Of a stretch of DNA of 64,000 nucleotides, positions 1 to 38,004 are shown one piece after another. Below the pieces are notes generated by a model. It made no database searches. It was not told where the DNA came from and saw only the letters and a program-made list of their open reading frames with translations. Each line of letters begins with the position of its first letter. The stretch's first letter is position 1. Both the position numbers and the translations under genes were made by a program. Source of the DNA: Candidatus Helarchaeota archaeon (GTDB lineage Archaea > Asgardarchaeota > Lokiarchaeia > Helarchaeales > RDOG01); the NCBI GenBank assembly GCA_019058315.1, contig JAHPZH010000002.1, positions 1,005,910 to 1,069,909 of the forward strand, given 5' to 3'.

Positions 1-3000
1 CAAAATTTTGCGATGTTATACCTATACTGTTCAATCTAGCTTTTCTAAAATTGATTATAAAAATTGTCCCATCAGAATAAATATTTAAAAATTCAATTTC
101 TGCATCTCCATTTTCATTAATTGTCACTAAATAATCTTGATTATAATTGAGTTCAACACCATCAATCATAACATTATCAATTTCGGAACTCCACTCCAAT
201 ACTGGATAAGATGCAAAAATATATTTACTAGTTCCCATTTGATATGTTATAGATGTACTTTGGGAATTAAATCCATAAAATAAATCGGTTGGATTTATCT
301 CTAGAGTGTATTCTTTCCCTATATTTTCCTCAACAGTCATAGGATAGGATATTCCATTAATTGTTAAGATAATGTCTTCAACAGTGCTATTGATATTAAA
401 GTGTAAATATGCCTTTTCTACGACTTCATGATTTAATATTTCAATATTTGACGCAATTTCTTTTGTTGCGATACCATTTGTGTAATATCTATAATTACTA
501 TAAAGATTAAAACCTTCAATAGGATGGAATAATTGTATAATTCCCCTACCATCTATATCATAAACGACTTCAAAGTCTACATCTTCAATTAGTCTGTCAT
601 AATCTGAATAAAGATTGTCGATTTCATCATCCCAATCTACAATTGGATATTCTAATAACTCATATTCTCGATCAATTTCAAGAGTTTCAATATCGAGTTC
701 ATTATTATATACCCTATAATGGAAGGTTAAATCATGACCACCCGATCCCAAATTATTTACCCAACTTTCAGCATCTTGAGTTAATATTATTTGAAGTTCT
801 TCGTTTATTTCATTAATTTGTACTGTATAATCAGTTCCATATTCTAATATCTGTTCATTAGATGATCCTTCATTATCAATTACTGTGTCAATTATAGGGT
901 CCCATACCACAGCAGGAGAATAGATTAAATCATATATGAAAACTCCAACGATAAAAGTCTGGGTTTCTATACGATCCTCGGATACCCTATAAGTAGCTTG
1001 AATTTCACCATCGAAGTAATTAAGTAGTTTAATTACAGCTCTTGAGTCAGGAAGGATATAAATTTCAAAGTCGATTCCTAATTGAAGCGGATTTCCATCA
1101 AGTAATACCGAATCAATACTATCATCCCATGGCAATATAGGGTATTGATCTAATGCAATTTCCCAGCTTGAGGGATCATAACCTAAATTTTCATCCTTTA
1201 TACTTAAAGTATTATTTATTATGTAATAGCTTTTATACTGGCTTTCTTCATATCCATAAAAGTAGTTATATTTCACCTTTTCTGCAAAGAGTCTCGTATC
1301 TTCAATATTTTCGATACCAGATGATGTTAATTCTATTTCAGCTAATTTTATTCCTGTCAAGAAATTAGGAGGTATTGCATCCTCTATCTCTTCTATTTCT
1401 TCTCCTGAAATAAGGAATACCCCAGTTTTATTTACAATAACCAGATCAATTCTTTTAAATCCAACTGTAGGTAGTGGGGTCTCTATCGTTCCATAATTAA
1501 ATTCTGTAGTATGGATGTAGCGTCTATCACTATTTGGGAACTCAATATAACCGTTATTTATTAATAATTGAGTAGCAGTTACTGTTTCGACTTCTAGTTC
1601 ATCATCTCGAGTCGGATCATCAACGATAGATCCTACCCTTGCCCAGTCTGAAAATTCACCTGGCCATTCTGAGCTCTCGGTAGAATCTGCAGGGTCTTTT
1701 ATGATTTCTGTTGGTTTCCAGAACCATTTTAATGATGGATTGTCTTCAATAAATAATGGGGAGATTGGATATGTTACCATAGAATCTATTATTCCAGAAT
1801 ATAAACCTTCAATAACTTCAGAATCACTTTGGATAAATGATCCTGTAGTCTCAAAATCTTCAATTAATTTATGTAATGGAATTTTTTGATTAAAATTCAC
1901 TGTTGGAAATTTAACAGTCGTATCATAGTTCAAGCAATTTCCAAACCAGAGCCTTAAGACATAACTAAAACTATCACCCTTTTGCACTATGGGATGGTCT
2001 TTACAGAATAAAATTTTGGTATTGTTAGCGTTTTCAAGCGTTCCCAAATGAGTTATTGAGATATCATCATAAGATGTCTTATATTCTCCTTCGATTTTAA
2101 CTTGTCCCAAATAATTACAATAATTCTGGAACCAAGTTGGGTCTAGACTGAATAATGTTGAATCATATGTATTTCCATTGATAGTTGCTGTCCATGAATC
2201 TTCTTCGATATTTAAGTCAATTTCTAAGTTATATGGTAAAGTTGCAGAACTTTCTATGAATACTTGCCTCTCTTCTATTATTCCATCTTTTGCTATCACG
2301 AATTTATAATATATATCATAACCACATGCTCCATCTGCTACTGCCTTAATATAAAATTTGAAGTAGTTATTTTCATCAAAATAATAAGGATAAAAATTGG
2401 CTAATTCGTATAATTCGCCCGCGGGAGGAACCCACGCACTACCCGTATCTAACTCTTCTATGACGAGTTTCAAATTGTAACCTTTATGCCAACTCCTTTT
2501 AGTAATTAGATTTTGCTCACCCGTTAATATTAATTTTTCATCCTCAAATGAAGGAGTACCTCCCCCGTCAATATAATCCCAATCCGATAACTCGTCTACA
2601 TTTTCGATATTAGTAAAGAACTCATAGAATTCTTTTGTGCCCTGAATTAAATCAAGACTGTCAATAGCTCCAGATAATAATTGAGCTCCCATTCCAAGAC
2701 CATTATCATTAAATATAGCTACCCAATCACTACCCTCTTGATATGTATCAAATAACATTGAAGAAGTTAAGTTGAATGGAATTGTCTTGACATCGTAACC
2801 AGTTTCTTCAGAATTCCATGTCATTGTTCTTTTAAGTTCAGTCATACCCCCAGAATAAAACATTGTATTATCTTCGATATCCCAATTCTTACCACTTCCT
2901 TTTGATTCGGTTATGACATAATCCTCACCCTCGGATATTATTTGAGTATCTGGAATTATATCATAAGAATTGATAGGATATGAGACGATTTCTGACATTG

Positions 3001-6000
3001 TATACTCCATATTATCTGAATTTTTACCAAGATCGCTTGCATATTCCGGCATACCATGTGTATATATTCTATGGAGTATCTCACCATTTAGATCAGTTAT
3101 TGTTACATTATCAATATACATTATCAATTTTCCATAATCATGTTCCAAAGCTACCTCAAAACAGGATGTTGTTTTTGTTTCGAAATTAGATAAGTCGATC
3201 CTCCGATGATACCATTTATTCCCAAAAAGATCAGTCTGGGGTGAAGCACTTATTCCATTCTGATCAACTGCATTTCCAGAACTCATCCATGTAGCATCAG
3301 TGAAATATATATCTACTGCTGCTTGACATGGGGTAAATAGGTAATCGGGAATTATTTTTATATCATATTCCAGAAAATTATCTGATTGTATCGTAATTGT
3401 TTGTTGGCTAATATCTGGGTACCAATAAGAATCTACACTTGGATCTAGGGCTTGGGCGGTAAATTTAATATGGTCGGGTCCATTATTGGAACTCTCAAAA
3501 TTCACTTCTCCGTATAAAATTTTATATATAAAAGCAAGTCCCATTGACTCACCTTGAGAAAATTCCACACTGTCGGATTGAACTTCTACAATTTTTGATA
3601 AGTCAGATTCCTCAAATGGCGCATTTGATACAATCCAAGATCCAGATTTATAGCGATAATCCACTTGGCTATTAAATAGGAATGGGGTATCGACACCAAA
3701 ACTTTTTAACAAGATTTCCCATTGAATCCAGCTTTTTATAGTTCCTTGAAGGATAATGAATTTATCTTGCGAGTACCATGAACTCCACTCAATATCTCCT
3801 AGTTCAGCAATACTGTCTGCGGTCTTATATCTAAACTCGATTTCTGTATTAGGTGTATTTTGATCTATTTTGGTAATAGCTGCAAAATCAATTTTTTCAC
3901 CCAGATATATCGGTTCCGTAGTTATGTTACCAGTTGGATAATACGCATCTATATGAACCGGATATAGACATATCCATGAATAATAGTTTGAAGTATAACT
4001 TTTTTTCGGCACCCGTCCATCTGAATAAAATCTAAAAGCTACCCTCTTCTCACCGCTATAACTGGAAACGTCTATATTGGCATAACCATAATCGAACTCA
4101 ATATAATTAGTCCAGTAGTTATGTATTTGCTCGACTGGTATCTCTGTGGTTATGTCTAGGTTCGTCCCAGGATCGTAAATGTATAATTCTAAATATAAAT
4201 CAATGTATCCCGTCCCCCTCGATGTGTAATTCATACTCCAGAGAAAATTTATTGAACCCGCACCAGTCAGATCTACGTCTTGGTATATAATATGCTCGAA
4301 AGTTCCAAGTTTAGCTTCGTTTTTAGAACTTAACACTTCATGAAAATTAACCGCATTATTGGTATGAATTATTTCACCTATATGACTTCCACCACTGCCG
4401 CTAGTTCTTGTCATTTGGGCTTTTTCACAAATCCAATAATCGGTATCCCACTCCCACTCCGTTAATGGATCGTCTGGATTTAAATCGTAAATTCCCTCAT
4501 TACCAGCATGATATAATCTTGTATCTGTAGAAAAATCGTAATCGGGTAAAATATCATCATTTGTATATTCTTTAAGTTGCCAATGCTCATCTATTACATC
4601 TCCGGTTGGATAATACACATCTATATTAACTGGATTCAAATATATATATGCAAAAAAGCCCCTTGTGTTGAGCATATCATCTGTTACCCACCCACTCGTA
4701 TAAAATCTAAAAGTGACTCTTTTTGTCCCTTCATAATTAGAAATATCTACATTGAGATACCCTTGATCAACTTGATTTGCAGTCCAGTGCTTATGTATTT
4801 GTTCTACTGGTGATATTGTATTTATATCATCTTCGGGCTCATGGATATATAGTTCTAAATTTAAATCACACCATGTTGATCCATCAACTTCATATTTCAT
4901 ACCCCAGAGAAAACTTATTGTGTCTGCACCCGTTAAATCTACGTCTTGGTATATAATATGTTCAAAAGTTGAACTTTTGCTACTACCACCCTTATTAGTG
5001 GTGTGATCCGAAAATTCTACTGCGTTATTAGCATGGGTTATTTCTCCTACATGATGTCCCCCACTACCACTAGTTCTTGTCATTTGAGCTTTTTCACAAA
5101 TCCAATTCGAATACCAATCCCCCGTAAAATCATCAAGGATGACATATTCTAAATTACTATCATGTAATAAGTGGGTATTGGTAGAAAAATCATAGTCGGG
5201 TAGTACCGTATCATAAGGATATTTTTCATACTCTAAATCTTCCTCGATAATTTCTATTGTATCAACTATTGTATGATCTATTGTATAATCGGTTAAATCT
5301 AAAACTTGTCTACTATCATAATAATCAGATTGTCTAAACATTACTAGACCTTTAGCCATTTTATTATTTACCCATCTATATTTCGCAGAAACCTTAGAAT
5401 TAAGTGGTGCGGGAGCTGAAAGTGTGACAATGCTTGTATCTAGATTAACACTATAACCCGTCTGTTCTACATCCCCAGATCCGGTATCAATATAAATATG
5501 ATCATTACTACCCCATGCTATTGGCAAATGAGATAATTGATATGTATCTGTCAGACCATCCGCACTTTCATCTAAAACTTCGTATTCATTAATAATTGCA
5601 AATGGTTCTTGTGAAAACCACCAGTATTGGGAATATCCATTCTTGACGGGAGAGAAGAATGTGCTTTGGCTCGAAAATGAACTGTTAAGTTGTATAAAAT
5701 CTATATATAATCTTATTTTTTCGGTCGTAGCTTTTGCAGCTATTAATTTTATTTTTAAAGTGTTTGATCCATCTATATAATCTTGTAAGTTTTCAATTTC
5801 AAATGGTTCGGTCAAGGAAAGTATATTAGAATCACCTTGTTCTATTATATCCCAATTTGTGGTAAGGGGATTATATATAGCAATCCATGTTTGCGGTATA
5901 TATGAATTGCATATACCATATATATCCAAGTAACTAGTCTCAGCTTGGGAAATATCTGATAATGGACTTGGATCGACAATTTCAAATTCGAAATCGACTT

Positions 6001-33000: not shown

Positions 33001-36000
33001 CACCAATCGCTAGATAGTCCATTTGTTCTCGTCTTACTGCATAAACTTGTTCAATGTCCTCCTCTAAATGACCCGATTTCCATATTCTCAATAAAAAATC
33101 TTCATCATCCCAATTGGGATATGTAGAAGTAAATCCTTTTTCATACCAACTAGGTTTCGTATCAGCACAGGCTTGGACATACATTTTAAGACCTTGATCC
33201 TTTTGAGACAACCATATAAAGTTATTTAATGCGTATTCTCTCATTTCTTTTTTATCTACAGGTAGTAAAAATGTAGCCATTTGTTCAGTTTCACGCATTA
33301 CTTGTTTCGCCCCAGGGAGTTTCCTCCTTAATACAATTACTTTTTGTTTCTCAGGATCCCAAGGCATTAAATGAAAGCAAGCACCTTGTAAACCTGACTC
33401 AATTGCGTATTCTGGATCACCACTTTCTTTTAAAGTTTTATAAAAGCCAGCTGTTGAGTCAAATATTATTTCCCCCAATAAATTATCCACTACTTCTTGA
33501 TAATTTGGACTAGAGGGTGGTAAACCAGCCTCTATTCGAGCTCTCTCCTCTGCATTTTGTCTTATGATTTCTTCTATCATTTTTTGTTTCAATTTTGAAG
33601 CCATCCACTTATGGAAATGGTGACTTCTTTTCATCTCATATTCAGGTGGAAGAGCAGGACGGGTATTGAATTTTTCTACTGCTGCATTATATTCTTCTTT
33701 ACTTAAAAACTCCCATGTATCCCATATATATAACAGCAACCAAATAGGAATTTCAACTTCTCCTTTCTCAGGTTTATAGAATCCGTAATAATAATCATCA
33801 GCAAATTCTTTCATTACAAGTTGAATTTTATCTTCTAATTCAATCTTAATGAAATCAGTAAAATATTCTATAGATAAATCCTCTAAATTTACTCCCACAT
33901 CGTCAAAATAATTTGAAACTATATTGGGAACGGTTAAAAATTCTGGATACATTGCTAAAACAAAATCTTGTACTGATAAATGTCTTATTTGCGCAATTTC
34001 TTGAGCAAAACCACTCCCTGCTTGTATTGTATTATCAATAAAAACTGGAGTTATTTGAGCAATATCTTGTGCAACGGCCCTACCAGCTACTGCACACATT
34101 TCATCAAGTTGTGTATGTGTTATTCCTGATGGAGGTCTAATGGCAGCTCTTGGGACATCATCTAAAAAGTCTGTCGGTTGTCTCGGAATAGATCTTGCTG
34201 GGCCTGTCATTCCTGAAGATGCTACTGGTACTGGTGGAGAAATAAAGGATCCCTCTAAATTTTCATTTAAATCAACAGATATTTGTGATTTAGTCGCCAT
34301 TTCAAAGTCGTTCGAAAATGTAGTTTCTGTAATACCCACACTAGCTTGTAATTTTCCATAATTATTCATGTTAATTGGTGAATTTGTTCGTTCATGGTCT
34401 CGGGTTGCAAAGGAATTAAATTCATTAAATAACTGAATTGGCGCTGTAATATCTGGATTTGATGTCATATCGGGAATGTTGGATTGAGCTGCTATAATTA
34501 AATCCCCTGAAATCATTAAAACACAAACAAAAATAGCGAATAATACCATTTTATTCTTCTTTTTTAAGAAAGTATATAATATAAGTAATGAAATAATTAA
34601 AAATAGACTAATTAACGCTAATAGCGTATAATCAATAGCAAATATATCCTCTAAATATGGTGATATCGATTCTATAGGAAAATCAGGTCTTCTAGACGGA
34701 AATCCCAGTCCATCTTTTATAGGTATTTCTTCTTCAGTAAAATTACCTATAACTATTGTCCCATTTGGAAGTGTCATAAAATTAGGTTCGTAGTTATAAT
34801 GATTACTATTGATATAATTTTCAATATTTCTAGAAATAGCTTGTTGATAAAAAGCTAATTTAAGATAATCTAAATCTGGTCTCAGAGAGGGTAATCCATA
34901 ATTCTGTTGGGCACTCAAGGTTTCAATTGTTTCTTCAAAAGGAGTTTCTCCAAGCCATTTAGTCAAATTCTGGTATTTTTGGTATTGATATAACCCATCT
35001 GCCTCCCCCAAAATATTTAATGCATCTATTGATAAATATGCATTTTGAATAGATGAAAATGTCCCATCATCTTTTAATTCACTCTCCTCTATTATTTGTT
35101 CTCTTAGAACATCTTTTTCTAATAACATTTTATATATCGTTTCTACCTGTTTCGGTTCAATTATTAATTCTTTTAAAAGGTTTGTAGCGAACCATAATCT
35201 TTCTAAGTTTTCTGCATAAGGTTGGATAATAGAAAGGGAATCATTATCTAAAAAAAACTGTTCATCCCATACCAATTTGATGTCGGAACTTTCTAAAAAT
35301 GATACAAATTGTTGTGTTTTTTGATTTTTACTATAGATATTTTCTAAAGACAGATAATGTAGACCTATTTCTTCTAAACCTCTAATCGGATCAAGAGCTT
35401 TTACCGCGATTATTGCCCAATACTGACTTTCCAAATCTTCTTGCATGATTCGATTCCAAATTATTCGACCTCCAACCATTTCTTTTATCTTTTCATATGC
35501 CATAGGTCTAATGGAGACTATTTCATCTTTTGCATCTATATAATTCAAGATACAAATTGCTTTAGCAGTGATTTCTATATTTGGAGTATCACCAAAAGTT
35601 TCAGAAAATCCTCCCTCAAGTCTCCACCTCTCCATAAGCCAAGAAACAAGTTTATTTCTATTAATATTTTCTAAAAATTTATCCTTTTTACCAAATAAAT
35701 CTAAAAATTGGAAAACTTGATAAGTTGTATCAATAGAAGAATATTCTTCATCTAATGCAAATCCCCCATCCTCAGATTGAAGGCTAGAAAAATATTCAAT
35801 TGTTGGGTCTTCTTTTTTAAATATCGGTGATTCAGATAAGAAATATAACATTAACGCATTGGGACTATTCTGTAAGTTTAAAATATTGATTCCTAATCCC
35901 AAAACCATTATGATTAAAATGGCAATTCCTACAGTAGGTGCTGCTCTTTTTACATATTTTGGCAATTTAATAGGTCTATTCTTTGGTTTTTTAGTCCAGA

Positions 36001-37195
36001 TCATCTTTTTGTTGGATTTAAGACTATATTGCTTAAAAATACCTCTCTTTACTGTTTCTTTTGTTTTATTTAGCGCATCTATTATAAAATTTTTAAAATT
36101 TATCACTTTAGTACTTAAAAGCAGCATTTTTTTAGATTTGTTTTGGGAATTTTTACGTAATTTTAAGGGAGTTATAGTATATTTTAGACTAAAATCTTTA
36201 CTGTTAGTCTTTTTATTTTTAATAAAAGATATCAAAGCATTTATTTGATAAATTATGTATTTTAATAAATCAACCTTGTATTCAATCTCTTCGTTTTTCA
36301 AATTTTCTAAGGTTCTATTTTTCAAGATCCTTAAAAGGTCAATTTTTCTGTTGTCAGAATATCCTTTTAATTCTAAAATGTGTTTAGCTTTTTCAAGAAA
36401 AGTTTCTTCTTCCTTTGAATAACCATATTTTCTCCTTAAACCAGCTCTACCAAGTAGACACTCTACTTGAAAAATACTGATAGCATTTGGACATTCAAAC
36501 TCCTTATTTAATTCTCTATCGTGTTCTTTTATCTTTGGATCGCTGTCAAAACTCAAATTTTGGTAATTAATGTCTCTATTTATATTTATTTTATATTTAT
36601 TACGAATTATTTTTAATTTATGTTCTATATTTATAGCATCAAGCTGTCCTTCTAAGAGTTCCTTGAAGAAATCAAAATATTCTTTACTTTCAAAGAGGTA
36701 ATTACTATTATTTTCCTTTGATGCTAAAAATTCATCGACTTTAGCAATCAAATATGAAATACGTGATAAATTTTTGGTTAACTCATGATATTCTTGGATC
36801 CTTTTATCTATATACTTAAATCCATTTAATAATGCATGGAATTTCTGATCAACTTCCATCGTAATATTTCTAAAATGAAGATTATTTAATTCTCCTTCGA
36901 GTTCTTCTAATAAATCAGTCTTAAAATTCGTTAACTCACTTAAGGTTAATTTTGGTTGCTTTTTATATTTCTTTTCAAGAAAATTAATAAAAATATCTAA
37001 CTTTTTATTTTCTAGTCGGGGTTCCCAGATAGAATTATAAAATGCAGCTGATAATATGGAATATATTCTATTTTTAAAAAAATCTTGCTTTTTATAATCG
37101 TTGATATACTTTTCAGCCATTTTTTCACATTCAAAACGATTATGCATACCATTGTCAGTATGATTTCTCGTTATTAACTCAGACTTTGTAATCAT
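1..37195 (-). CDS. Giant membrane-anchored multidomain surface protein, >=12,398 aa, 3'-partial (runs off the left edge)
   Basis: ATG at 37195 with GGTGA 5 nt upstream; begins MITKSELITRNHTDNGMHNRFECEK. The same frame reads as stop-free, coherent protein wherever I translated it (e.g. 33001 QVYAVRREQMDYLAIG, 21241 TEDFPPEANISAVMLDYSG, 13201 DTTPPEVNILFP, window start YSDGTIFIINFRKARLNSIGITSQNF). The ORF track lists nothing in this frame, as expected if no stop occurs before the edge. Confidence 0.92.
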   Translation of the reverse strand, partial: MITKSELITRNHTDNGMHNRFECEKMAEKYINDYKKQDFFKNRIYSILSAAFYNSIWEPRLENKKLDIFINFLEKKYKKQPKLTLSELTNFKTDLLEELEGELNNLHFRNITMEVDQKFHALLNGFKYIDKRIQEYHELTKNLSRISYLIAKVDEFLASKENNSNYLFESKEYFDFFKELLEGQLDAINIEHKLKIIRNKYKININRDINYQNLSFDSDPKIKEHDRELNKEFECPNAISIFQVECLLGRAGLRRKYGYSKEEETFLEKAKHILELKGYSDNRKIDLLRILKNRTLENLKNEEIEYKVDLLKYIIYQINALISFIKNKKTNSKDFSLKYTITPLKLRKNSQNKSKKMLLLSTKVINFKNFIIDALNKTKETVKRGIFKQYSLKSNKKMIWTKKPKNRPIKLPKYVKRAAPTVGIAILIIMVLGLGINILNLQNSPNALMLYFLSESPIFKKEDPTIEYFSSLQSEDGGFALDEEYSSIDTTYQVFQFLDLFGKKDKFLENINRNKLVSWLMERWRLEGGFSETFGDTPNIEITAKAICILNYIDAKDEIVSIRPMAYEKIKEMVGGRIIWNRIMQEDLESQYWAIIAVKALDPIRGLEEIGLHYLSLENIYSKNQKTQQFVSFLESSDIKLVWDEQFFLDNDSLSIIQPYAENLERLWFATNLLKELIIEPKQVETIYKMLLEKDVLREQIIEESELKDDGTFSSIQNAYLSIDALNILGEADGLYQYQKYQNLTKWLGETPFEETIETLSAQQNYGLPSLRPDLDYLKLAFYQQAISRNIENYINSNHYNYEPNFMTLPNGTIVIGNFTEEEIPIKDGLGFPSRRPDFPIESISPYLEDIFAIDYTLLALISLFLIISLLILYTFLKKKNKMVLFAIFVCVLMISGDLIIAAQSNIPDMTSNPDITAPIQLFNEFNSFATRDHERTNSPINMNNYGKLQASVGITETTFSNDFEMATKSQISVDLNENLEGSFISPPVPVASSGMTGPARSIPRQPTDFLDDVPRAAIRPPSGITHTQLDEMCAVAGRAVAQDIAQITPVFIDNTIQAGSGFAQEIAQIRHLSVQDFVLAMYPEFLTVPNIVSNYFDDVGVNLEDLSIEYFTDFIKIELEDKIQLVMKEFADDYYYGFYKPEKGEVEIPIWLLLYIWDTWEFLSKEEYNAAVEKFNTRPALPPEYEMKRSHHFHKWMASKLKQKMIEEIIRQNAEERARIEAGLPPSSPNYQEVVDNLLGEIIFDSTAGFYKTLKESGDPEYAIESGLQGACFHLMPWDPEKQKVIVLRRKLPGAKQVMRETEQMATFLLPVDKKEMREYALNNFIWLSQKDQGLKMYVQACADTKPSWYEKGFTSTYPNWDDEDFLLRIWKSGHLEEDIEQVYAVRREQMDYLAIGEYNQWQNIKKVEIIYIPKGSLEEIEEELVEVEEFRHMLELSEISFEEFFKVLSFDHSNQEFFDFLDSYTEAIGTTNANLNDAIFNVPAETIDLYNAINLMRWGSTGYAPGAGPLIPLKESGTPFGPFNRIYAQEQRLAEHRLFLDRYMITTTSEFYDQAMGIHSYSVVPFKPLKDHLEHPYGKVPVDELAQELSQISSRINREYSKSYAVGRNINGEKAVTGYLFYVNIENQRLIWVAQTEDGEEIIQFNLRRQGIFQKDINHCFSQIRFDPVTKELSFKDTRISSDKYNIENKNDMEEFNHIVQKNLENFIQNPSSSIGLKYGIFNININANLEDAKQYALAELDKDPSLLEEYKKYNFIEFDKDINDLKSKIENLPAIPHIPDIISPEKTIILTEQQQEQVRIAYNRYVEFISTLSTIIEKRGNKLLIQQLDDAEYDYSKLHCEWVYDELKNNFKFENKLFGIIEGLQDKKEYSIDGQYNIKVLYLAEFLHLMEERASPDTPTLGRISLSSLMGATRKASHNILLKYMIRPGGLTEEEIRKMVSLYEKNDYEILANTFPSLYNFLMTKRVWDPIQNKLVSVDRHPVCIAFNKINVQTGEIIEARILPKKERHKLPDEYREKIGEEYQYSFDYILYLLSALTFRISPSHFQKPIHSEMYTSYQYFTEAIQLAVVSHLLPELSKIFEDQGHILYPNLVEYVQAFPGPDLQDQNTFLADAVALVPALNVEKQIIEVISIHFSAKSTQYPKKKMLEGNILGVTEEDVELNEHSIQKDSLFSGTKPILINDKLIIPSYLVTLWLTETAPLNIKNEITVQKTKKDWTNFDIYSDEGQRFLLEIFAKIGIPQQELMDLLKRTYIVLEDDIIRVNEKYISSIGGEKRSAEGYMPHPNGRRYVPLYLDKTDPNHKSEIVEVTIGYDKDGNEINEEIERKITSNERKLKLGQVLAAFREKRIVMFQSSLEREYWEDEWESIHQNNLHRLFEETPRELFPPEDSQSFLNPNQCEEIANCMEKYVIHYNDYILEIFNNPTPEALEFMKGAIMMMSQGREVPSSVPTTKSTQDPLILEVLKPVEDILKDPNLTKKQFLKVFAEILRQMNYRLLQEVRNGLDYNLGISILQLLLLGSSDLSNYLLKFGLQDPGNPIFTDYDRDIFEVFVQFVSGLMDLIDLGTIEEPILPEIPIEVEYLNYLDYASTIYENRWISDAIFNDFVMDEIELDSSLETSLRNTALRTLGISGLISLIPEFEIMETWPFDEIKNWGLEFGAYKDSDSNPIHPLSEAYGYVSTWYDLSRHNVVVRTQVDESGDYAGIRGVFLVQNGTYYSSTAKMGFSIRNLRTDEIGYGEFDFSSMIYNNTDHYNGYISRDEQGLAKFDIFVEKGDTIEIIFDRVPRDSFIMIPAINDNEAGVNQQYVEIHYEDSTVFVKDVDILYLSLLEENVEDLSGTIAFATVTKGCIISDYNQNNIPDSIKIAKDTDGNFENNVDEFISYFFDNEEGKQIVEGQLLTQNEILTYNYNLETDLQLAQIPYEWDTTEGDSIIMEKDGVSTILELNVHYDIDLFEQKVIFIEPNLLSLGSSIRAVYRTSDLIIWAGLNENNVEQFILGQAKIHVDHFISMNPQKKVETEFKEIYIIGVITNELNLTQNNVIIEKYKEFPAAKTYSSIIYDPSDNKLVPIYIFADPDLPFMGTSLDVALTTAYMLLENLYLEGYLNTRIVNYLELQEIFTSHSGIFINLNGILPYTFLNINDDRQKHTTFKTWVNILGNQYVSVYTRPLEFVFYKNKVVPYSEIFYQSYQNYLKQYQLESYIPTPVGPSKIVEEILSLTENYNSIFNINRVGWDQLYIDKIPESSLILFGQDDPNNDLNDLDNSDSEYYKISNKLDTDYLKLRDETAYMSQVGFEFNLEKLDKDIIDTSLEYKIGTNRDAEDQTSFYIMVYNWKFNSWTNLTTIIPKDITTVPNDLSEEINLAFIKNGIIRVKIILFTKLTNGLTLEILIDKLKIESNYYESTTPKYECYEESNKIKARNNIKHDFEGPDYYYNYLVSDPINLILDKGVSYKLKFDYSILENYANSYFYFIVTDYPNENGLLYEDRPETAGWTTWNTDDSEMISTKEIEFTVPTSGFISDDFSLVFGIKNAGNITISNIFLEKFNDITPLEMKDNNYYTLTPEGGYLESTFIFNGIPLPELRNYHIDLEIEAYKYAELSTGYIRIRGTSSKYVHKDTVFSTTINGRDAEFEINDPDPPFWGYEIPSGGVLWLPIISKIPQYPVTPRDYIEWSFNIPSSSNRYDQDILVDNPSTMDGGVTNQFTGVGYCDLVIAFYDYDENNWNSYSSIYIEDEEELFEIHSVLNDNIYPIISEDGEIKVKIFKLDEDVMYNDQIFFDFLNIKIHSIDNFNDFNYAKNHIAEMDVYNKQLTVDNQVLFRTDCTIFEGITSTQSFWISEYPIDTTQFSEQDLKIEWAKSEDFSDPFTGQWGKGLVSFVHMYPTENTKYSINFNDECQQTSKILFSMITGIPLSTSITANEYDLWKGGLSGLYSLFEKGDYGLNVESTDKDGDGIEDVIVEVPGSGLTYQFTSYAAGAPNIKLIERGPNWEKVMNTTDGTYSKYYYSSNVFINYGDFWLPYHFHENSIDDFFIKHPSGTFIINSTGYYIFNNTELILNKSHWDLYVNNGGWQLEESIKTEFETYIEIDGTLVTITNSTSVDGLQDPLIIRRKDYTNSGILSTDWRFGFGDFKITVDFLSTADETKEYQIRWSGYVPNIDNIEVGYPSPYKPLYDSDFSDGSWVLNSSHPPNFFNSTSYGIKFNQTEIFDWFDWKSNVSIDINENCILTYQPDHCPCVSAELYFNNVTLENGTVLETEQINFNLNETNTLNIYDYIAKKIGTKANKINQIWIHYEEVGNYTDFTNCTYSDDPHNHFFLYLGFGISEWYKTQYITDSFLEIDSLSSVNFYKNDTFFLNIDFNDVSNNISRKININPGLNNVKFNIIFYNLTLQKGQSIKIDPNEKIFKDELVEDWSWTFWSTYSNWDWDWAYIPIEVWLPGPWGIPVKWIVLWPIKLYDWCWYPPYRRNNRGSQLYPVGYPLAPLPDSGNSLFDNHDDLGTPLSRTSFNYMGGTHYLLNNLVNVYDPRIMQSDAYWGDFADPEMLIGDWCAMGTNIPFHIFPGYYGDFAHIIDPQTHYPMNIFVYSGQQIENWERTDIIWDQNQQPSPLSYLDVWVRDLPIDNGIDGFSDWYYVSNPGPGLPGGWVENPHDRDNYGVEGHLIIPEWSNFDDRPAQVDRELIYKSDLTDGTWSFSLNTDASETLEPEDITQYFIASGSENAYQLGKRIDTLYNVKMKEHFEGDGLVNSFILTIKPDLDLDSIEEVTVTLNALLDPPDPQAIQTYEFIYTDSPSSTGGFQYTRTGDNSEIINLFQGVDPYLPSGDDLVNIKYIVLGGDILEAEYSIIDSETVFFKYPPKEGSEISVSYQHEPIYFELERTGVYLTGTEEFDWFEIISSETIEINPDTFFQGKIFQSDFAITSLTIEEYTDELGIKWTSNPIEIDLTIMDYFNLYEYLLPETEPLGFIIKELNKIKFRFEEIDPILNRIDEFWFDFEDYTLTHQFVIPWDPLVDSVYIPGTGYLEYGVDYDIEYLGEGYAKILFLTSPPYVIMDQLSTVSYRTYNPEFGPNLGSQFLEFSFSITEWDLSSSLPGGPYYYYEPTLNPGGEYQLMDWMNNFFSYGADSDGGGNDQGDYPNHFIWCPYPIPGFGYPKGDRWEGSQWHVDSGDWDDRITSTVMTDTGRYKFWFNMEAGLASGETKNYDPDYKMRDKFNEEYFQMILHANTGSNKALLDWYQIDSLRENGWNIPWSNNDEFEDLFDPLYTGTDTPPIRGEFHQPFHWKQKSIGTSNNPNPNRRPQLVVQYTEDFPPEANISAVMLDYSGEAWKTAYIKLNENDDKGDYEQGDTISTSSKKIIFQVSTNDDYGFNSDEIPDDAEESIETHHHSSYQEDLFGGIYQWDRHVEAIKINVYYWDWSTSEWLFHDTHTNWWQHNTDPKELIEDWKYDIIDRNFEFDLNAPVGDTVYRIEVDTLNPYDKQRWLSQVEEKELFVLYIELDTTSPIVNDITVTDIGEADNDGVAEYGEEIQLQVTAYDPELLVIPTINPPPVVYPEHSVVDGYVYLWHDDDIIYRTDSYSVIINQLLVNPDTIIIRDIYDEIIGMKIKLHGLNPIFEMSTEPILGLGSGPSTFIWTQKDSIDDLLYTGDWYLEEVAGEYAIYVYLALSDVTPEIKPDGWAEGFMNFEYGTLDSSYKYTPLKKSDGTNAIIENSDGSYTIPFNVPAAKLKNYLFTDGEVTLRAKSGIYDNPRLKGAQISDVGKGNHGISPIYNIVITKQDAIFNDNNIYIQSNKGRPIQFYDLVIMGSQLVTPFNSPITEGCVKYHYSIDFDTNGQPINWIEIGESNLDSNGINFIETYLDFLPPDLTFSIKAEFLGNDYYKPNFVYIIKTATKNDNLAINVKDKYGNTLETIKLQARLLQSDYSIPVANRNIKFSILNYADDVPLVDNMVALTNDDGWAEYDYLCNLEFGGSYPFVYKIKAEFVGTDDYYETPQYTIGYLFDNSLDTFQIPTSRPGIMNITYFGNNLNSSFMIATTEGYLDKVNNIELIDQTLDWVEILVETSTQDNSKHADCYFTIYDSGFVDIKVKTYDIDESELVRAIFSLNSSAHVYSDDLLPYGNLDIENTFEYSDMGWLMSHNPEWMILGDDENLWGISMWGYHPYSLSTIPLRSTWWINSPKYQALSYGMNIGSESSTTIRVGPISESHINGRTPPYTELFLTDIQADGTISTWLSPFEDSLDTIISDTYFTLNETLMFGEEGINWEEGDDCFSTSFDAFYQSISYNISQSILDGLNHVVRNWTYNFKPVNITQSPFMTWAWKKGGITSEDFELIDRNDMLFDINYVYDYSWFIGTKYDTWDEIQNIISITELNTGKVLKRVKKNPIDNEYTVDLENHLITFGGEPYIGVDNYNITYSYSDSAGTDLSIELYVRDTETGVSATITIDNSNYGIPIDWELKSINLHKLIYEYYVTQIYGPTPPPNLDEHDFELLGIGFNNHDQGYSLFDFISVYGIELDEQYYITSLDNTNINTNVNSFYSLMDDGTLILNIAESDDLEKNEIEIIVDEELEPENSYILQSEIMLYDSDSSIFDHGRFSIILVYDDGTEDQFSFSTHPNLATNLVPLNQFAKIQSPIQISSSKKLEKIKFKLEELNERDSEFMCFLTHYRIIKEKGNTLDSMTFTNNQVIPNFSEFYIVDTVIAEADVIKYYYTVIYMDSNAWIALIPEYYRGISDFEIYLDSRSIQQGDHIFLNEGYHYIMVRIETSDPMVQWKLKIFNSLIENQLTTNNEITSLTALATFYHDPIKETAIEIEEIAEELYQTYLIPINESWDGEYVYIDNAGEYKVENLEVKWNYYTSSSNWIDINDYMKNIYPTQAIKRDSFRGLAKTNQKFVLSCRPIYEIYYVYYNDYSDTDEDGVTDEHIYLTQVATLDELYSLGRGYYHLDYETGLITIGGQSIPWGDDNYFVSYLVKPINVMAYGWTGIWSPVESTATLVFKMKGCAVVNFNGYEIINENFGNNEYIEKEILVWLEKGYNYLFIKNGIEDGDFKFNIRIKDVIKLRKETVETGSIVNDEIILLKIPINIKNLLIDGTPFNDYIINELEKKLILTDPPIGFYDITYEYLDSELIKIYNNKYEEMVPIATPEYDYNFENNVYAAGSLSSYAAGDVFTSFKTESNYNLLEMGEYWELYYDPEIYRYKQLIFSNYEYINVDGYWVSYEYTPISNNDFIVKNPTSLYHFTPNGVKIFDITGTSLKELENFQVQYKNWIWGWCDMDVDTINYQINQDSNYINITSIQTLTDGSLLKIKYIMGSGSTKYEINFISIYKREYRIQWNLEGYENDIYILSNDGGTITSANGELIVRLNYEIDKFHHFTDLGERASITFGNFNLDAQEEVKILAALSTREPICNDTYVSNQNPATFYGYKDTLQVNYIDNTALFPDAEGNFVALKANNFYQQVGDSSGDLIDTHERDDNSLILTEDSSDNLEALFYFDTGIEASHIMNLGLETYISDDNNWFLWFPDLQISIWNWAQNDWFELGKTIRGCEKWYNYTISNIMYIHEFASSNGQVIIRIKNKYYDNLQPNNYNLDYLNLIVNYKNIFKYSFIKFPLPLENDIEIVYEDTSFNIFNTETKIDNYNDKVSMYYFLNSDIINDTITFDDIYSYVTSGEIVTYGNILENDYRVTDHSDGIYEVIESQYNPVDNTSYISVTYDYDIKETCNYIEIETDFNLTSEYNDDMGHFELQIFNWDTCSWETLSIWYKQDLNKLCKIKCSNIINTDFGKYVMNKLVRIRYWFARVGLWSFKMHLDKSIVISDLSDSFIDEIQDVSFNEWYSFKSLEFSTLLTDLAKTGEEYATFLFKGDKSEWSFSSSDAYMNNPYLEVYYSKRIPVIISDPSKDVSFYETEILSVSVQDYYGNSVGAGLEIIFEYYDDVLGEFISLGTAYTNDFGIAELELFITFFPGEYIIRAVFEGNEFFLPYSVEGIMNVIDTTPPEVNILFPDPTIYHRHEILQFVFTSKDNVFVDYHLIYIDDEAPIYVEAYPFETPFEEYQYDEVITIYIPDPAILEHTVKIVAVDYAGNEAEVTGNFKINLQDPIVEITNPIPPSYYTSNGQILLEWTASSEVEIQYWNITNFDVAIEEFLPKNTRSYLLNLDEGFHNIQLYTEDESGRIARKNIFIGVDKTDPSCIILAPTQNEHIPDDSIELYWIVHDDDTCPSGIENVLIEKRYDNDPWETVSEQFKLNYTISVPIAGNWQIRATVWDIAGNYNSETIDIEIDLTDPVVQIISPISQSYCGEIVTLKWQSDVSEFNIFKNGKLINDLTIDYNPTTQLYYTELDFDKENTYIIRVEAIDEAGRESSDEITLFVDIKSPFLTILSPESGYVTTETINLKYIFDEDFPLYLEVWVEEWDGAQFVREVTYRNRYENFPPPLNINVNLAEGKFKVYIELKDHLNTLVSKYVEIIIDNTPPEINILNIDPTPISSLINTEVVAVEVGFSDLNKIARIISLVQGIVDIVIENPIGNSYTFNFVLNEGINDLNFIVVDESGNYREVALSLNVDTTPPIIYKDSVFVNGKYPAVTKLIFVDEECSVRFDYSELNLAYFMLTDWYKEDYEDTIEINTLSDPSLYTLQNMVKSGGHWEVPMDEYEYEKALLDYDWSSVVNLARTDYQGDFGGELTGTYESDWLNQIAAMSSNIWGSGAHTAGVVHSGSHSVPDGTYRQIFSRSSSTSGSDSVQGRLLHETYQYANFTNADLMSFNWEICTELDLYNSQSAEIEFYIENELVWYEEYYNLLGLDEIISDTVIIDTTTYTGMKELRFIVRLNNEADSGNGVNSIQVTLYPIKIERLHEYGYLTLQPINLHENVDSIEFYRTGYAPTDTSINMAYRTADSETELLGNAWINLESSEQQTIPDNLVKDWIQVAIILYTNLNDLDTPYLFDISIYYTYYYQSGIFYEQPCVLPYDETVQGHHTMKLDIYDLVGNSDTYDFDIFVDVGEPELVNILPLEGERIGSTNYVVKWDFIEQALYSEIPDLEETYICQVLIDGQLQGTFTTSSSQTASYEVELSKDSTEIKILVADMAGNIKEVTRNIVVDLESPTIQIDSPINNGFLCTNQHILSLGWSSYDEGGIGNYFLAIDDNEPVEILEGIYNYDLNLVEGIHVITLTAVDLAGNTGSDYLIYNFQPELPTILITNLLENNFVNNLDIEWIYEEGIYQLDYFIVSLLNLDTSQIVYTSEKLTDSTHSILGMPDGNYEIIVTLYSDSAPPQTHSITNIHYDTHADAVSDITFDSGDYWDYYIDIIWQCTEINLDYYTIIFDDGTNMYEFTTTNNYYKDLPIPSTDGNTITIIIKTHDKAGNEATIQVTGVADTTAPIVEINAQFRNWQWYTPEGSQDPILEEQIHDILNSYEIIIIYKNRYFSIEYEGIEIATISDVGEVQIINPNYAPMEKVFAYIANIIKFNEDLKPNSNVGQLLITDLILQYENIDQFSWSYVENYLNEIETYKIYYNDIILGSITDLNFELLELFEGSDQVITIAAIDKSGHIGITSIVLQIDLRHPKVINTRGLATANGGMEFSVELADDCLELVTVNLEYKVTVNGTLYVCNENGNWVPVDDYQGSYPDQGIYNAEMNLIYTSKNINEGSKISSAFENVIGTYLIEISDLPDNAQLEYRFAVTDHSAHSAYTSDWDSDVMLIHPTCLTGFYMPYRKLSNSIILDDFEQDINRHYYWLDDFKDIDPSWEFDSSLIMTSYDKTVTKDGVNTGILDFYGDFDAGAWLTLYRDFNLAIEEDMVFHMRAKLPTGIFTEPEFPDSQMPNFLIYIIFEISDEDGVISNIQYDITTTLTSTISLTESGEWLNYNLNLFDLFKQNGIDEPKTILKTSIRIKARDVSPEVSHFTGVKHFYIDRIGMYKFGWKVRDGDGIYRLENDGLEGQYCMNLETGPAYSSEFFIVNSTDEVNININSNPVVRFTIERINYNTIPSIGFVLNDILINFVWGPKSQISYDFDLYDYVWNIQIADDEIGVKSFEYDLLSAIDVFNKRNEAFTINATVITDVLLICRSIRLEEVSHPSPTHTPLQTPSYELAIANFDFLTFSPRSQISIPYNIEDSSIEGYSWNTQSLGFNIWSLNGTVMDGFDALFSLNSTIIPDSPDVEEFRSWEELDNSWTYEELSGGGGAPILVINTDPTDITDGILNIAYYTLTYTGNLIEEGYNKIKIVCAAGSGGQLMINIAVNYGFLQPIFVDGGEGEHIIDLREYGDITAFMLTAISQRIKIDQIEFGQFENNFYTNNIVGPRDFHITKLTANMTEGDNIKIVQKMWSELLLVEDIYVIDTVFGNINITRYMQYDENEIVLTFPLTNFTTYKPNDFNILLGSSVYENIEGLSTLFDMDGKFLKIESVHNSPYTGFEYIEVDFEFEIVDPSPLSDISQAETSYLDIYGICNSYIPQTWIAIYNPLTTNWDIIEQGDSNILSLTEPFEIENLQDYIDGSNTLKIKLIAAKATTEKIRLYIDFIQLNSSFSSQSTFFSPVKNGYSQYWWFSQEPFAIINEYEVLDESADGLTDTYQLSHLPIAWGSNDHIYIDTGSGDVEQTGYSVNLDTSIVTLSAPAPLNSKVSAKYRWVNNKMAKGLVMFRQSDYYDSRQVLDLTDYTIDHTIVDTIEIIEEDLEYEKYPYDTVLPDYDFSTNTHLLHDSNLEYVILDDFTGDWYSNWICEKAQMTRTSGSGGHHVGEITHANNAVEFSDHTTNKGGSSKSSTFEHIIYQDVDLTGADTISFLWGMKYEVDGSTWCDLNLELYIHEPEDDINTISPVEQIHKHWTANQVDQGYLNVDISNYEGTKRVTFRFYTSGWVTDDMLNTRGFFAYIYLNPVNIDVYYPTGDVIDEHWQLKEYTNDDILPDYDFSTDTRLYHAGNEGIYDLNPDDPLTEWEWDTDYWICEKAQMTRTSGSGGSHIGEIIHTNNAVNFHEVLSSKNEAKLGTFEHIIYQDVDLTGAGSINFLWSMNYTSRGTGYIDLYLELYIYDPGTNLDITTEIPVEQIHNYWTNYIEFDYGYANIDVSSYSGEKRVAFRFYSDGRVPKKSYTSNYYSWICLYPVHIDAYYPTGNITTEPIYLGEKIDFAAITKIDQNTPNTEIEFRYKTADSIAELGDIEWSSWYSQDKFIILQGTIKSWIQWEILLKSFGVDTPFLFNSQVDYRYKSGSWIVSNAPFEESDLSKIVEVQSDSVEFSQGESMGLAFIYKILYGEVNFESSNNGPDHIKFTAQALDPSVDSYWYPDISQQTITIQSDNFLEYDIKIIPDYLFTPCQAAVDIYFTDATWMSSGNAVDQNGISASPQTDLFGNKWYHRRIDLSNFETKTTSCFEVALEHDYGKLIMYIDNVTITDLNGEILHRIYTHGMPEYASDLGKNSDNMEYTMSEIVSYPINSYDIIPDTQIISEGEDYVITESKGSGKNWDIEDNTMFYSGGMTELKRTMTWNSEETGYDVKTIPFNLTSSMLFDTYQEGSDWVAIFNDNGLGMGAQLLSGAIDSLDLIQGTKEFYEFFTNIENVDELSDWDYIDGGGTPSFEDEKLILTGEQNLITKRSWHKGYNLKLVIEELDTGSAWVPPAGELYELANFYPYYFDENNYFKFYIKAVADGACGYDIYYKFVIAKDGIIEERQVFIESSATLPYNLEIDLNIEEDSWTATINGNTYDSTLFSLDPTWFQNYCNYLGQVKIEGEYKTSYDDISITHLGTLENANNTKILFCKDHPIVQKGDSFSYVLRLWFGNCLNYDTTVKFPTVNFNQKIPLHKLIEDFETTGSFIQSDSEVIEGLYSGIIDSMVTYPISPLFIEDNPSLKWFWKPTEIIKDPADSTESSEWPGEFSDWARVGSIVDDPTRDDELEVETVTATQLLINNGYIEFPNSDRRYIHTTEFNYGTIETPLPTVGFKRIDLVIVNKTGVFLISGEEIEEIEDAIPPNFLTGIKLAEIELTSSGIENIEDTRLFAEKVKYNYFYGYEESQYKSYYIINNTLSIKDENLGYDPSSWEIALDQYPILPWDDSIDSVLLDGNPLQLGIDFEIYILPDSRAVIKLLNYFDGEIQATYRVSEDRIETQTFIVGVFIYDLIYSPAVVWDPIIDTVIDNEGSSNEQILEYGTDYTVQINEINEELQIILTQDAESWVNNLGSGGHDLTFHYRVYNNELDIETLEIDREYELLEYPIVDWDDEIDNLYSDYDRLIEDVDFEVVYDIDGRGIIQLFHPIEGFNLYSNYRYYTNGIATKEIASNIEILNHEVVEKAYLHFNINSTVEDIILTINGISYPMTVEENIGKEYTLEINPTDLFYGFNSQSTSITYQMGTSKYIFASYPVLEWSSEIDNVMIDGVELNYNQDYLVTINENGDAEIEFLNIYSDGTIFIINFRKARLNSIGITSQNF
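3960..5230 (-). repeat. Tandem duplication of a jelly-roll-like domain of about 222 aa
   Basis: DNA matches ctagttcttgtcatttg(g/a)gctttttcacaaatccaa at 4401 and 5070, and tctacgtcttggtatataatatg at 4272 and 4938. Both copies contain WICEKAQMTRTSGS and TFEHIIYQDVDLTGA. Confidence 0.9.
8500..13300 (-). repeat. Array of about 12-13 Ig-like (Big) domains in the giant protein
   Basis: Period about 90-100 aa, with linkers IDTTPP, VDKTDP, IDLTDP, VDIKSP, IDNTPP, VDTTPP, VDVGEP, VDLESP, ADTTAP and G-strand motifs VDYAGN, WDIAGN, IDEAGR, VDESGN, YDLVGN, ADMAGN, VDLAGN, HDKAGN. Confidence 0.8.
19270..19830 (-). repeat. Two adhesin-type Ig-like (Big_1-like) domains; a further copy at about 13300-13530
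   Basis: IKLQARLL...PVANRNIKF...LTNDDGWA...IKAEFVG; GESNLDSNG...IKAEFLGNDYY; GTAYTNDFGIA...IRAVFEGNEFF. Confidence 0.6.
34490..34635 (-). other. Giant protein TM hairpin (TM2, KKKNK loop, TM3 or signal-like segment)
   Basis: LLALISLFLIISLLILYTFL-KKKNK-MVLFAIFVCVLMISGDLIIAA. Confidence 0.75.
34980..35810 (-). other. Giant protein prenyltransferase/squalene-oxidase-repeat-like alpha/alpha domain
   Basis: Repeats IEYFSSLQSEDGGF...SIDTTYQVFQFLDLFG, VSWLMERWRLEGGFSETFGDTPNIEITAKAICILNYI and DDGTFSSIQNAYLSIDALNILG. Confidence 0.7.
35885..35935 (-). other. Giant protein TM helix 1 (about aa 421-437)
   Basis: TVGIAILIIMVLGLGINI, preceded by a strongly Lys/Arg-rich stretch (KKPKNRPIKLPKYVKR), consistent with the positive-inside rule. 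Confidence 0.8.
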
Positions 37196-37256
37196 TTCAT
37201 TCACCTTAAATTCCCAATTTTTTTGAATTTGAATTGAAAAAATTATAAAATTCGAA
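37196..37256 (-). promoter_or_regulatory. Putative BRE-TATA promoter and Shine-Dalgarno site of the giant gene
   Basis: Minus strand CGAATTTTATAA at about 37254-37243, roughly 50 nt upstream of the ATG; GGTGA at 37205-37201. Confidence 0.5.
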
Positions 37257-38004
37257 AAATACAAATTAATTTAAATAGATTTTATACAAAAAATACTTGA
37301 AATTTGCAAAGTTTTCATAAAATTTTGTGATTTCTTTGATACTATATTTATTAAAATAATGGGTTCTGAAACCAGAATTGGAAATATTGGGGGATCTGGA
37401 TCCAAAGTATGGGGTAACCTCACTTATATACCCTTTAGTAGAATCTATATTAGAAGATAAACTTAATTTATATGAAACTTCTATATATGAATTAAGATTA
37501 AAATCCTTACAAAAATGTAAGTAGAGATTAAACAACAATATCTTTTACCTGCTACTTTTAAACCTAAAAACTCCCATTTAAATTTGAAAAAATCAATTTT
37601 TTAGGGATAGATAATGTCTTTTGAATTTATATTTAAATTCTTCGAACTAATGATACATATTATATAATATCTATTAGATATTCACGATTATTCATTGTGA
37701 AATTCTTAATAATTATTGTAAAATTTCCAAAAAATAACTACATTTTAATGCGATTTTTATAATGAATAATATTCAATTCACAAAAAATCTCTTATTATAA
37801 AAATAAAGGAATTCATTTAGGTATATTATTAAATCATTTTCATTCTTACCTAATTTAATTTTTATAAGAGGAAAAAATTAATAAAAACTATAATTAATTT
37901 GAATTTCTTATAAAAGACGCTTCTATAATTAAATTTTAAATATATTTCGTCATTTGATTTACTAAATACTTATTTCTTTAATATAACTAACAAAAAAACT
38001 TATC

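Follow-up and report, generated by a model that had tools for sequence, protein, structure and literature searches.

Does a reading frame of many thousand codons without a stop encode a real protein, and if so, how would the cell hold such a protein and on which side of the membrane would it lie? The question is raised by the minus strand of a 64,000-nucleotide stretch (referred to as the window) from a Candidatus Helarchaeota archaeon, which covers positions 1,005,910 to 1,069,909 of contig JAHPZH010000002.1 (assembly GCA_019058315.1; G000:C5:1005910-1069909) in a metagenome-assembled genome (MAG) of 5.79 Mb and 12 contigs. The frame is open from window position 37264 (TTG) or 37195 (ATG) to the window edge, and an earlier note, made from the letters of this DNA, had proposed that it encodes a membrane-anchored modular protein of at least 12,398 residues. 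As a lower bound this was correct, since the frame is open through the window, but the true size is larger: when the contig was read onward, the first in-frame stop was met 6,049 nt beyond the edge, at G000:C5:999860. The whole gene (G000:C5:999860-1043104, minus strand) encodes 14,414 amino acids (aa) counted from ATG 37195, with a predicted mass of approx. 1.6 MDa. Aa 1-12,398 are encoded inside the window (1..37195) and aa 12,399-14,414 left of it (L002:9861-15910), and all the features of the giant described below lie on this same minus strand. A Shine-Dalgarno-like AGGTGA was read directly at window 37201..37206, 5 nt upstream of ATG 37195, as had been stated before; the TATA signal that had also been proposed is uninformative in a spacer of 23% GC.

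The frame could in principle be an assembly artefact or a decaying pseudogene, since the genome is a MAG with 6.6% contamination and a single public run, a sediment metagenome which is probably the source, carries the sequence, with no RNA run listed for it. The coding properties of the frame speak against this. It has one stop, the terminal one, in 14,415 codons, whereas the other five frames contain 819-1,860 stops each and their longest open stretch is 155 codons. The 14,414 codons are open at approx. 32% GC (0.42, 0.32 and 0.21 at codon positions 1, 2 and 3, respectively), there are 0 runs of N within the gene, and the base composition gives a log10 probability of about -542 for the lack of stops. 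The detectable internal repeats are scarce and diverged (at most about 53% identity), thus there is little for an assembler to collapse or misjoin. An independent assembly of that run (Logan), which is not independent data, gave a contig of 132,615 bp with a uniform depth of 18, which showed 0 differences over window 1-20000 and contained all sampled words of window 27196-37195. In addition, collinear homologues of about 10,000 aa are present in other genomes. We regard the gene as almost certainly real and intact, in line with what had been claimed, and an artefact or pseudogene as extremely improbable. The proposed Asgard origin of the host is likewise supported by the RpoB domain, for which identities of 72-77% were obtained with Freya-, Jord-, Hermod-, Odin- and Thorarchaeota MAGs, compared with 62-68% for the remaining archaea.

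Is the giant an isolated protein or a member of a family? The DNA beyond the window had been expected to hold a C-terminal domain besides the stop, and it indeed encodes a conserved C-terminal cassette (aa ~13,600-14,260), in which small-residue hydrophobic helices are located (aa ~14,119-14,250), and a basic tail of 160 aa (aa 14,255-14,414), all left of the window. In the alignments the cassette is characterized by the motifs R..AyD, GADWY (at 13,706), LRxPTxE..WE, G.L.R.P, LWD.K, PYL.I.I.D.DP and GIPLE.D..Y..Y, in this order, with an invariant Asp-Pro at 14,049-14,050. A profile of the cassette (A5) matched 17 of the 399 other genomes of the phylum, 16 in one family plus a marginal f3 genome; its E-values were 2.6e-139 for the own gene, 1e-103 for G396 and 1e-67 for G321. 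By RpoB this family is Thorarchaeota, as G396 and G321 are 100% and G336 and G384 are 87-89% identical to Thorarchaeota MAG records. In these last two genomes the A5 match closes a long open frame, of 9,987 aa in G336 (G336:C28:148-30111) and of at least 9,749 aa in G384 (G384:C25), and both of these giants carry a signal peptide/transmembrane (TM) segment, a Q..GGF-type region similar to the toroid discussed below and a TM hairpin whose loop is short and basic. When aa 400-960 were compared with the N-terminus of G336 by BLAST, the E-value was 1.4e-4 over 274 aa. Besides the cassette, three collinear high-scoring segment pairs were obtained for each of the two, to aa 2999-3208, 6689-6787 and 12,808-13,158 of the giant, with identities of 24-31%. 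The search of Asgard genomes that the earlier note had suggested thus yielded collinear Thorarchaeota homologues of about 10,000 aa.

The likeness between the giant and those of G336 and G384 lies in the common build, i.e. signal/TM segment, toroid, hairpin, a helix-rich proximal region poor in glycosylation sequons, huge acidic beta-rich body, cassette and basic tail, while their identity is low (the 24-31% is reached in short patches only). Unlike the giant, the Thorarchaeota proteins are about 4,500 aa shorter, their sequons are 1.3-1.65x expected instead of about 0.5x, and they have no counterpart of the first 420 aa, a head which is restricted to the host lineage. Their Pfam content is as empty as that of the giant. 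Judged by these alignments, the whole architecture is conserved between two distant Asgard lineages, with the 420-aa head as an addition in the host lineage, and the giant belongs to an undescribed, almost unannotatable family of Asgard giants common to the host and Thorarchaeota.

When the last 1,200 aa were compared exhaustively with 1.84 billion representative proteins, 11 matches only were obtained. One of them, P0001, comes from a metagenomic contig of 4.5 kb and is 48% identical over aa 12,954-14,263. Another, P0004 (2,677 aa), is encoded on a 119-kb scaffold (L009:1-18034; ENA ERZ23499107, ZHAO22-1 scaffold_21), directly behind an open reading frame (ORF) of at least 10,255 aa, and this scaffold is collinear with aa 9,029-10,113 and 12,493-14,190 of the giant at 21-32% identity. 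P0008 (527 aa, with the C-terminal cassette) and P0009 (644 aa) are stand-alone genes. In two metagenomic relatives the giant is divided over two ORFs that lie in different frames (L009, at least 10,255 and 2,677 aa; L008, second ORF of 1,347 aa); the second ORFs have no signal peptides, and the split is either a real two-gene form or the result of frameshift errors. As for their neighbours, a Roadblock gene is present on the P0004 scaffold, and the P0008 gene stands right after a gene of an Arf/Gtr1-RagA-type small GTPase (L095:1673-6261, Logan SRR33785057), with a leucine-rich repeat (LRR) gene two genes downstream. Two LRR proteins encoded near family members were compared and discarded, for they shared generic repeat similarity only (27% identity). 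No neighbours are shared between the host locus and the Thorarchaeota loci.

Closer to the host, three parts of the giant (its first and its last 1,000 aa and aa 902-3901) were searched for in the 40 nearest genomes and in the 6 of the order, and no match was obtained; nor did the gene turn up among 135 genomes from the largest sister family that was searched. A narrow cassette profile (A1) had one marginal match only among the 399 genomes, and a search of genome contigs with the last 1,200 aa revealed no relative. A word-indexed protein search returned nothing for the N-terminal 1,000 aa, among proteins of near and of longer lengths, and, for cassette alignment A3, its own first row only.

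How would the chain be attached to the membrane? Hydropathy analysis located strongly hydrophobic segments at aa 421-441, 856-876 and 883-903, i.e. the three N-proximal TM segments that had been listed earlier. They follow the 420-aa head (window 35936..37195), which is rich in Lys/Arg and in helix formers, is predicted to be cytoplasmic and has no family that we could find. TM1 (aa 421-441, window 35873..35935) has 8 K/R and 0 D/E in its N-terminal flank, and TM2 and TM3 form a hairpin around the loop LKKKNK (aa 856-903, window 34487..34630). Between TM1 and the hairpin lies a prenyltransferase-beta-like alpha/alpha toroid (aa 440-857, window 34625..35878), predicted to be extracellular. Acidic flanks face the toroid and the body (aa 904 onward), and the positive-inside rule is satisfied at all three helices for an external body. 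The predicted topology places aa 1-420 inside and aa 440-857 outside, followed by the hairpin and by the rest of the chain outside. An N-terminal anchor with the bulk of the protein outside had been proposed before, and it is in agreement with this charge distribution as well as with the signal peptides of the toroid homologues.

The prenyltransferase-like domain of the earlier note was also recovered. PF00432 gave 29.2 bits (cut-off 26.5) when aa 421-901 were searched alone, in a partial match covering profile positions 51-148 of 304; within a 5,000-aa query the score was 22.6 bits, under the cut-off. An AlphaFold2 (AF2) model made from 19 homologues had a mean predicted local distance difference test (pLDDT) score of 66.5, with values of 73-97 in the core. 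The top Foldseek matches of this model were prenyltransferase beta subunits, the thioester-containing domain of complement and terpene synthase (E from 6.5e-4, TM-score 0.36-0.51; best entries 6j74_B, 3dra_B and 6o60_B), all of them alpha/alpha toroids. There is, in sum, moderate support from the models for an alpha/alpha-toroid fold of aa 440-857. With the prenyltransferase beta subunits and other alpha/alpha toroids the giant shares the Q..DGGF-type hairpins of PF00432 and the predicted fold; unlike in the prenyltransferase beta subunits, its toroid is predicted to be extracellular, between membrane helices. A toroid paralogue of 376 aa in the same genome consists of a basic N-terminus, one TM segment (signal-anchor) and the toroid, and distant homologues were detected in 32 of the 399 other genomes of the phylum. 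Most of the homologous ORFs fetched are 355-420 aa long and many of them start with a signal peptide, which supports the external location of the toroid. The predicted external site and these signal peptides would, by inference, argue against an active protein prenyltransferase, and the toroid seems to be a conserved, non-catalytic juxtamembrane part of the anchor. The enzymatic cargo suggested earlier did not find support, as the toroid belongs to the conserved anchor and has a predicted extracellular site, and no other catalytic family was detected in Pfam, PHROGs or the PDB sequences.

Does the toroid stay connected to the body? TM3 is preceded by KKKNK, and its C-terminal end, ...IIAA/QS, is signal-peptide-like and carries a small-x-small motif. 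In a processed classical surface protein TM3 would serve as a signal peptide within the chain and be cleaved at ...IIAA/QS, the body would be held by the C-terminal cassette only, and the head, TM1, toroid and TM2 would be left as a separate membrane protein. The other giants of the host, which have a signal peptide and one C-terminal TM segment, are compatible with such processing, and so is the occurrence of toroid proteins as stand-alone genes of 355-420 aa. However, the Thorarchaeota giants have the toroid-fused TM2-loop-TM3 hairpin as well, and a clear A-x-A site is missing from their TM3. That the fusion is conserved argues for a lasting physical link between toroid and body. Cleavage at TM3 is considered unlikely.

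What kind of chain does the N-terminal anchor carry? The membrane-proximal region (aa 904-2600, window 29396..34486) is non-repetitive and rich in helix formers, and no family was found for it. It is followed by an acidic body rich in strand and turn formers, which extends from aa 2601 to ~13,600, beyond the window (window part 1..29395). Over the whole chain, helix formers are enriched in aa 1-2600 and strand/turn formers together with acidity in aa 2700-14000, where D+E amount to 15% and K+R to 7%. The sole Pfam signal of the body is an immunoglobulin-like (Ig-like) cluster at about aa 8,000-9,300, with Big_13 at 47 bits and weak Big_7 and Big_3_2 matches; Pfam and iterative self-search together delineated about 10 divergent Ig-like modules at aa 7972-9552 (window 8540..13282). 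By self-BLAST and iterated hidden Markov model self-search about six weak repeat families were obtained, covering 3,751 of the 13,513 body residues (28%). Repeat identity does not exceed about 30%, except for a recent internal duplication at aa 10,561-11,260 (window 3416..5515), whose copies are approx. 53% identical and of which a third, older copy exists at aa 8602-9020. The body is mostly non-repetitive unique sequence (72%) and not a repeat array. Of the approx. 9,800 aa of modules from at least six repeat families that the earlier note had described, the number of families was about right and the acidic beta character was confirmed, but the extent was not.

In the AF2 models a beta-sandwich was predicted at aa 13,344-13,454 (pLDDT 65-88), and together with the Ig-like cluster it points to surface-type folds in the body. 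The model of the last 1,200 aa, based on an alignment of 10 rows, had a mean pLDDT of 41 and was usable only for this beta-sandwich. A Pfam scan of the giant at E<=1 revealed nothing besides PF00432 and the Ig-like cluster, the PDB sequence search with all four pieces of the giant gave no match at E<=0.01, and PHROGs at E<=0.01 gave nothing except one 18-bit match of unknown function. Look-alikes from the ESM Atlas for the last 1,000 aa, aa 902-2600 and aa 1-420 had scores of at most 0.81 or gave no usable match. Modules of the phage baseplate or minor-tail type were also considered and were rejected, PHROGs being empty apart from the 18-bit match. Phage tail proteins did head the structure search of the C-terminal model, but with a Z of 7.5, the stated noise level of the tool.

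On which side of the membrane does the body lie? N-x-S/T is the sequon of the sole Asgard archaeon studied so far (PMC11284389), and the observed count of this motif was divided by the count expected from composition. In the host genome the ratio was 2.07 for 86 exported-type ORFs and 0.94 for 887 cytoplasm-type ORFs, and the other host giants with a signal peptide and a C-terminal TM segment had 1.7-2.9x the expected number, a type to which the neighbours of the giant gene also belong. In the body of the giant 64 sequons stand against 121.5 expected (0.53), which is about four-fold under the exported proteins of the genome, and aa 904-2600 contain 1 sequon where 9.8 are expected. The 48%-identical relative P0001 is likewise depleted (4 vs 9 expected). 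The Thorarchaeota giants show their sequon excess overall and in the distal body, and their aa 1001-2000 are nearly sequon-free in both G336 (1 vs 4.8) and G384 (1 vs 3.8). According to these counts the sequon-free proximal region is a family trait, and the depletion of the whole body is specific to the host lineage. The sole sequon-enriched island of the giant is located at aa 4001-4500 (window 23696..25195; 16 vs 7 expected); this segment, which may be glycosylated and functionally distinct, is also enriched in Trp (22 per 500 aa).

Some of these values would suit an intracellular giant, whose body is a cytoplasmic, membrane-tethered scaffold similar to titin: the ratio of 0.53 is closer to that of the cytoplasm-type ORFs than to that of the exported ones, the K/R content of 7.1% is between those of surface giants (~3%) and cytoplasmic giants (15-17%), and P0001 and P0004 have no signal peptides. 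On the other hand, the positive-inside rule at the three N-terminal helices puts the body outside, on the side of the toroid, the homologues of which carry signal peptides. The Thorarchaeota homologues begin with a signal peptide, and the sequon excess of their distal body is what is expected of exported proteins. Since the body ratio is even under the cytoplasmic baseline, selection against glycosylation is suggested, which would be relevant only outside the cell and fits exposure there. We consider an intracellular body very improbable, and it is likely that the body is outside the cell.

Is the other end of the chain also held by a membrane? The C-terminal helices have Kyte-Doolittle means of 1.5-2.2. 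In nine family members the 35 residues past the last helix contain 41 K/R and 18 D/E, and the stretch ahead of the first helix 43 K/R and 64 D/E; this charge pattern would place the tail in the cytoplasm of the producer. That the C-terminus is membrane-embedded as well is proposed tentatively, at somewhat below even chance. A different use of these helices can be envisaged by analogy with the polymorphic toxins (CdiA, Rhs), with which the giant has in common a stalk, a conserved pre-terminal module and a terminal tail. In such a contact-dependent effector delivery the stalk would reach a neighbouring cell, the C-terminal helices would insert into its membrane and the tail would be the effector. 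It is compatible with the arrangement of the C-terminus, where the conserved cassette with its invariant Asp-Pro precedes the hydrophobic helices and the tail, and with the facts that the tail of the giant has no match in the 48%-identical relative and that sequons are avoided in the tail as well as in most of the body. The tail, however, is not hypervariable, being conserved between two Thorarchaeota genera: in G336 and G396 one unbroken alignment with 38% identity takes in both the cassette and the tail, ending no more than 7 residues before the terminus, and the last 94 residues of the two tails are 46% identical. At E<=0.1 no Pfam family, toxin families included, matched aa 14,255-14,414. 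No co-directional gene follows the stop, the next gene being convergent and encoding a 632-aa sequon-rich surface protein. From the polymorphic toxins the giant differs in the lack of a same-strand downstream gene and in a tail that is conserved between Thorarchaeota genera. The charge pattern, too, fits a tail within the producer's own cytoplasm. A nearby LRR gene was examined as an immunity candidate and rejected, since it is at the opposite (5') end of the giant and LRRs are greatly expanded in the genome, with 164 LRR_8 matches, so that its proximity is not significant. Effector delivery appears quite improbable, and a C-terminal membrane anchor is favoured over a toxin tip.

From the gene, its family, its architecture and the sequon statistics we infer the topology, the export route, the second anchorage, the length and the adhesive role of the giant as follows. 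The chain would be threaded out via the Sec route; TM1 would export the toroid, and the TM2-TM3 hairpin with its basic cytoplasmic loop would bring the chain back outside. There it would continue with the sequon-free helix-rich region of approx. 1,700 aa, about 11,000 aa of acidic beta-type modules, some ten of them Ig-like, and the cassette of approx. 650 aa. The N-terminal helices would hold the protein in the cell's own membrane, while the C-terminal helices most likely re-insert and leave the tail in the cytoplasm. If a beta module of about 100 aa spans approx. 4 nm, the body would form a fibre or a loop of a few hundred nanometres, which may serve as a tether or adhesin toward partner cells or particles. 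The giant is probably an integral-membrane surface tether of this kind, with an N-terminal and most likely also a C-terminal anchor; for the tether or adhesion role in itself the chances seem evenly balanced.

Several observations weigh against this picture. The C-terminal helices are moderately hydrophobic, and in G336 none of them reaches a Kyte-Doolittle mean of 1.7. Judged by its sequon count, the body is unlike the other surface proteins of the host. P0001 and P0004 form ORFs of their own and lack a signal peptide, which is hard to square with export unless the split is erroneous or another export route is used. Pfam detected no ligand-binding family of the adhesion type (lectin, vWA, cadherin or Laminin_G), and the glycan binding that had been proposed earlier has no direct support.

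A more elaborate form of the tether, which we hold to be distinctly unlikely, would have both ends fixed in the membrane of the producing cell, each with cytoplasmic domains, and between them an ectodomain loop or lasso of approx. 13,000 residues and a few hundred nanometres. In a host taken to decorate its other surface proteins with N-glycans, this loop would be purposely kept free of them. It could act as a tether that captures partner cells or senses tension and is connected to the cell interior, with the toroid as a juxtamembrane clasp. If this double-anchored loop were true, it would represent a new kind of archaeal surface organelle; if the giant is only a long adhesin, it is a useful yet unsurprising addition to the catalogue of giant Asgard proteins.

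How does the giant relate to the large proteins already described? Giant (>3,000 aa) proteins of Asgard archaea are a noted class (Wu et al. 2022, PMC8813620, Extended Data Fig. 7), and the few archaeal proteins that exceed 10,000 aa come mainly from Asgard (West-Roberts et al. 2023, bioRxiv 10.1101/2023.11.21.568195); the present gene is among the largest archaeal genes on record. The aloposon giants (Otus, Ephialtes) are encoded in tandem pairs of 3,000-6,000 aa, with a tRNA integration site on the downstream side and a MinD/ParA-type gene set on the upstream side (PMC8813620). The giant is likewise a very large, poorly annotated Asgard protein, but it is encoded by a single gene without a tRNA site or a MinD/ParA set: no tRNA was found in the window, L002 or L003 (~95 kb examined), and no ParA/MinD among its neighbour genes. 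It is by these features that the giant is set apart from the aloposon giants. The common archaeal 'huge protein' type has Laminin_G_3 near the N-terminus (Amaral and Devos 2024, PMC11573180); no Laminin_G_3 match was obtained anywhere in the giant at E<=1.

Outside the archaea, the bacterial RTX/BIg giant adhesins (such as LapA, SiiE and MpIBP) are built from near-identical repeat arrays and have RTX nonapeptides and a type-I secretion signal. The giant resembles them in its membrane-retained N-terminus, its long acidic extender with Ig-like modules and its specialised C-terminal modules. It differs in its 72% unique body, in the approx. 10 Big_13-like modules and in the hydrophobic membrane cassette at its end, and no RTX or HemolysinCabind match was detected in it by Pfam. 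The RTX/BIg adhesins would be a functional analogy only.

Asgard archaea are the closest prokaryotic relatives of eukaryotes and live in tight contact with partner cells, the contact molecules being unknown. Almost nothing in the giant matches the libraries of protein families or solved structures, and the anchor of the family is unusual and conserved, with membrane helices that apparently clamp a toroid on the N-terminal side and a membrane cassette at the C-terminus. For antibodies, localisation and binding studies in Asgard enrichments, toroid and cassette offer small expressible targets, and the selective loss of glycosylation sites is a testable oddity.

The same genome harbours further large frames. 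One of 13,746 aa (G000:C3:1001344-1042584, minus strand) is unrelated to the giant by BLAST (E<=1e-6) and has an N-terminal signal peptide, one C-terminal TM segment and 420 sequons (1.87x expected); a third large frame, of 6,782 aa, was found at C1:219119-239467. Three co-directional genes on the plus strand (L002:3027-9804, i.e. G000:C5:993026-999803) converge on the 3' end of the giant gene and encode a protein of 535 aa with no known function, a 1,065-aa S8 subtilase and the 632-aa protein mentioned above, also of no known function. Their products are sequon-rich, and each combines a signal peptide with one or more other hydrophobic segments, in two cases at the C-terminus. Upstream of the giant the plus strand of the window encodes the cytoplasmic LRR protein of 298 aa (39809-40705) and a WD40 protein of 771 aa (43834-46149). 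They are followed by an ORF of 2,256 aa (46476-53246, plus strand) with an N-terminal signal-like segment, three more hydrophobic segments and 67 sequons (34.5 expected); Pfam gave weak Cep192_D3 and NPCBM_assoc matches only, and its product is probably another large surface glycoprotein.

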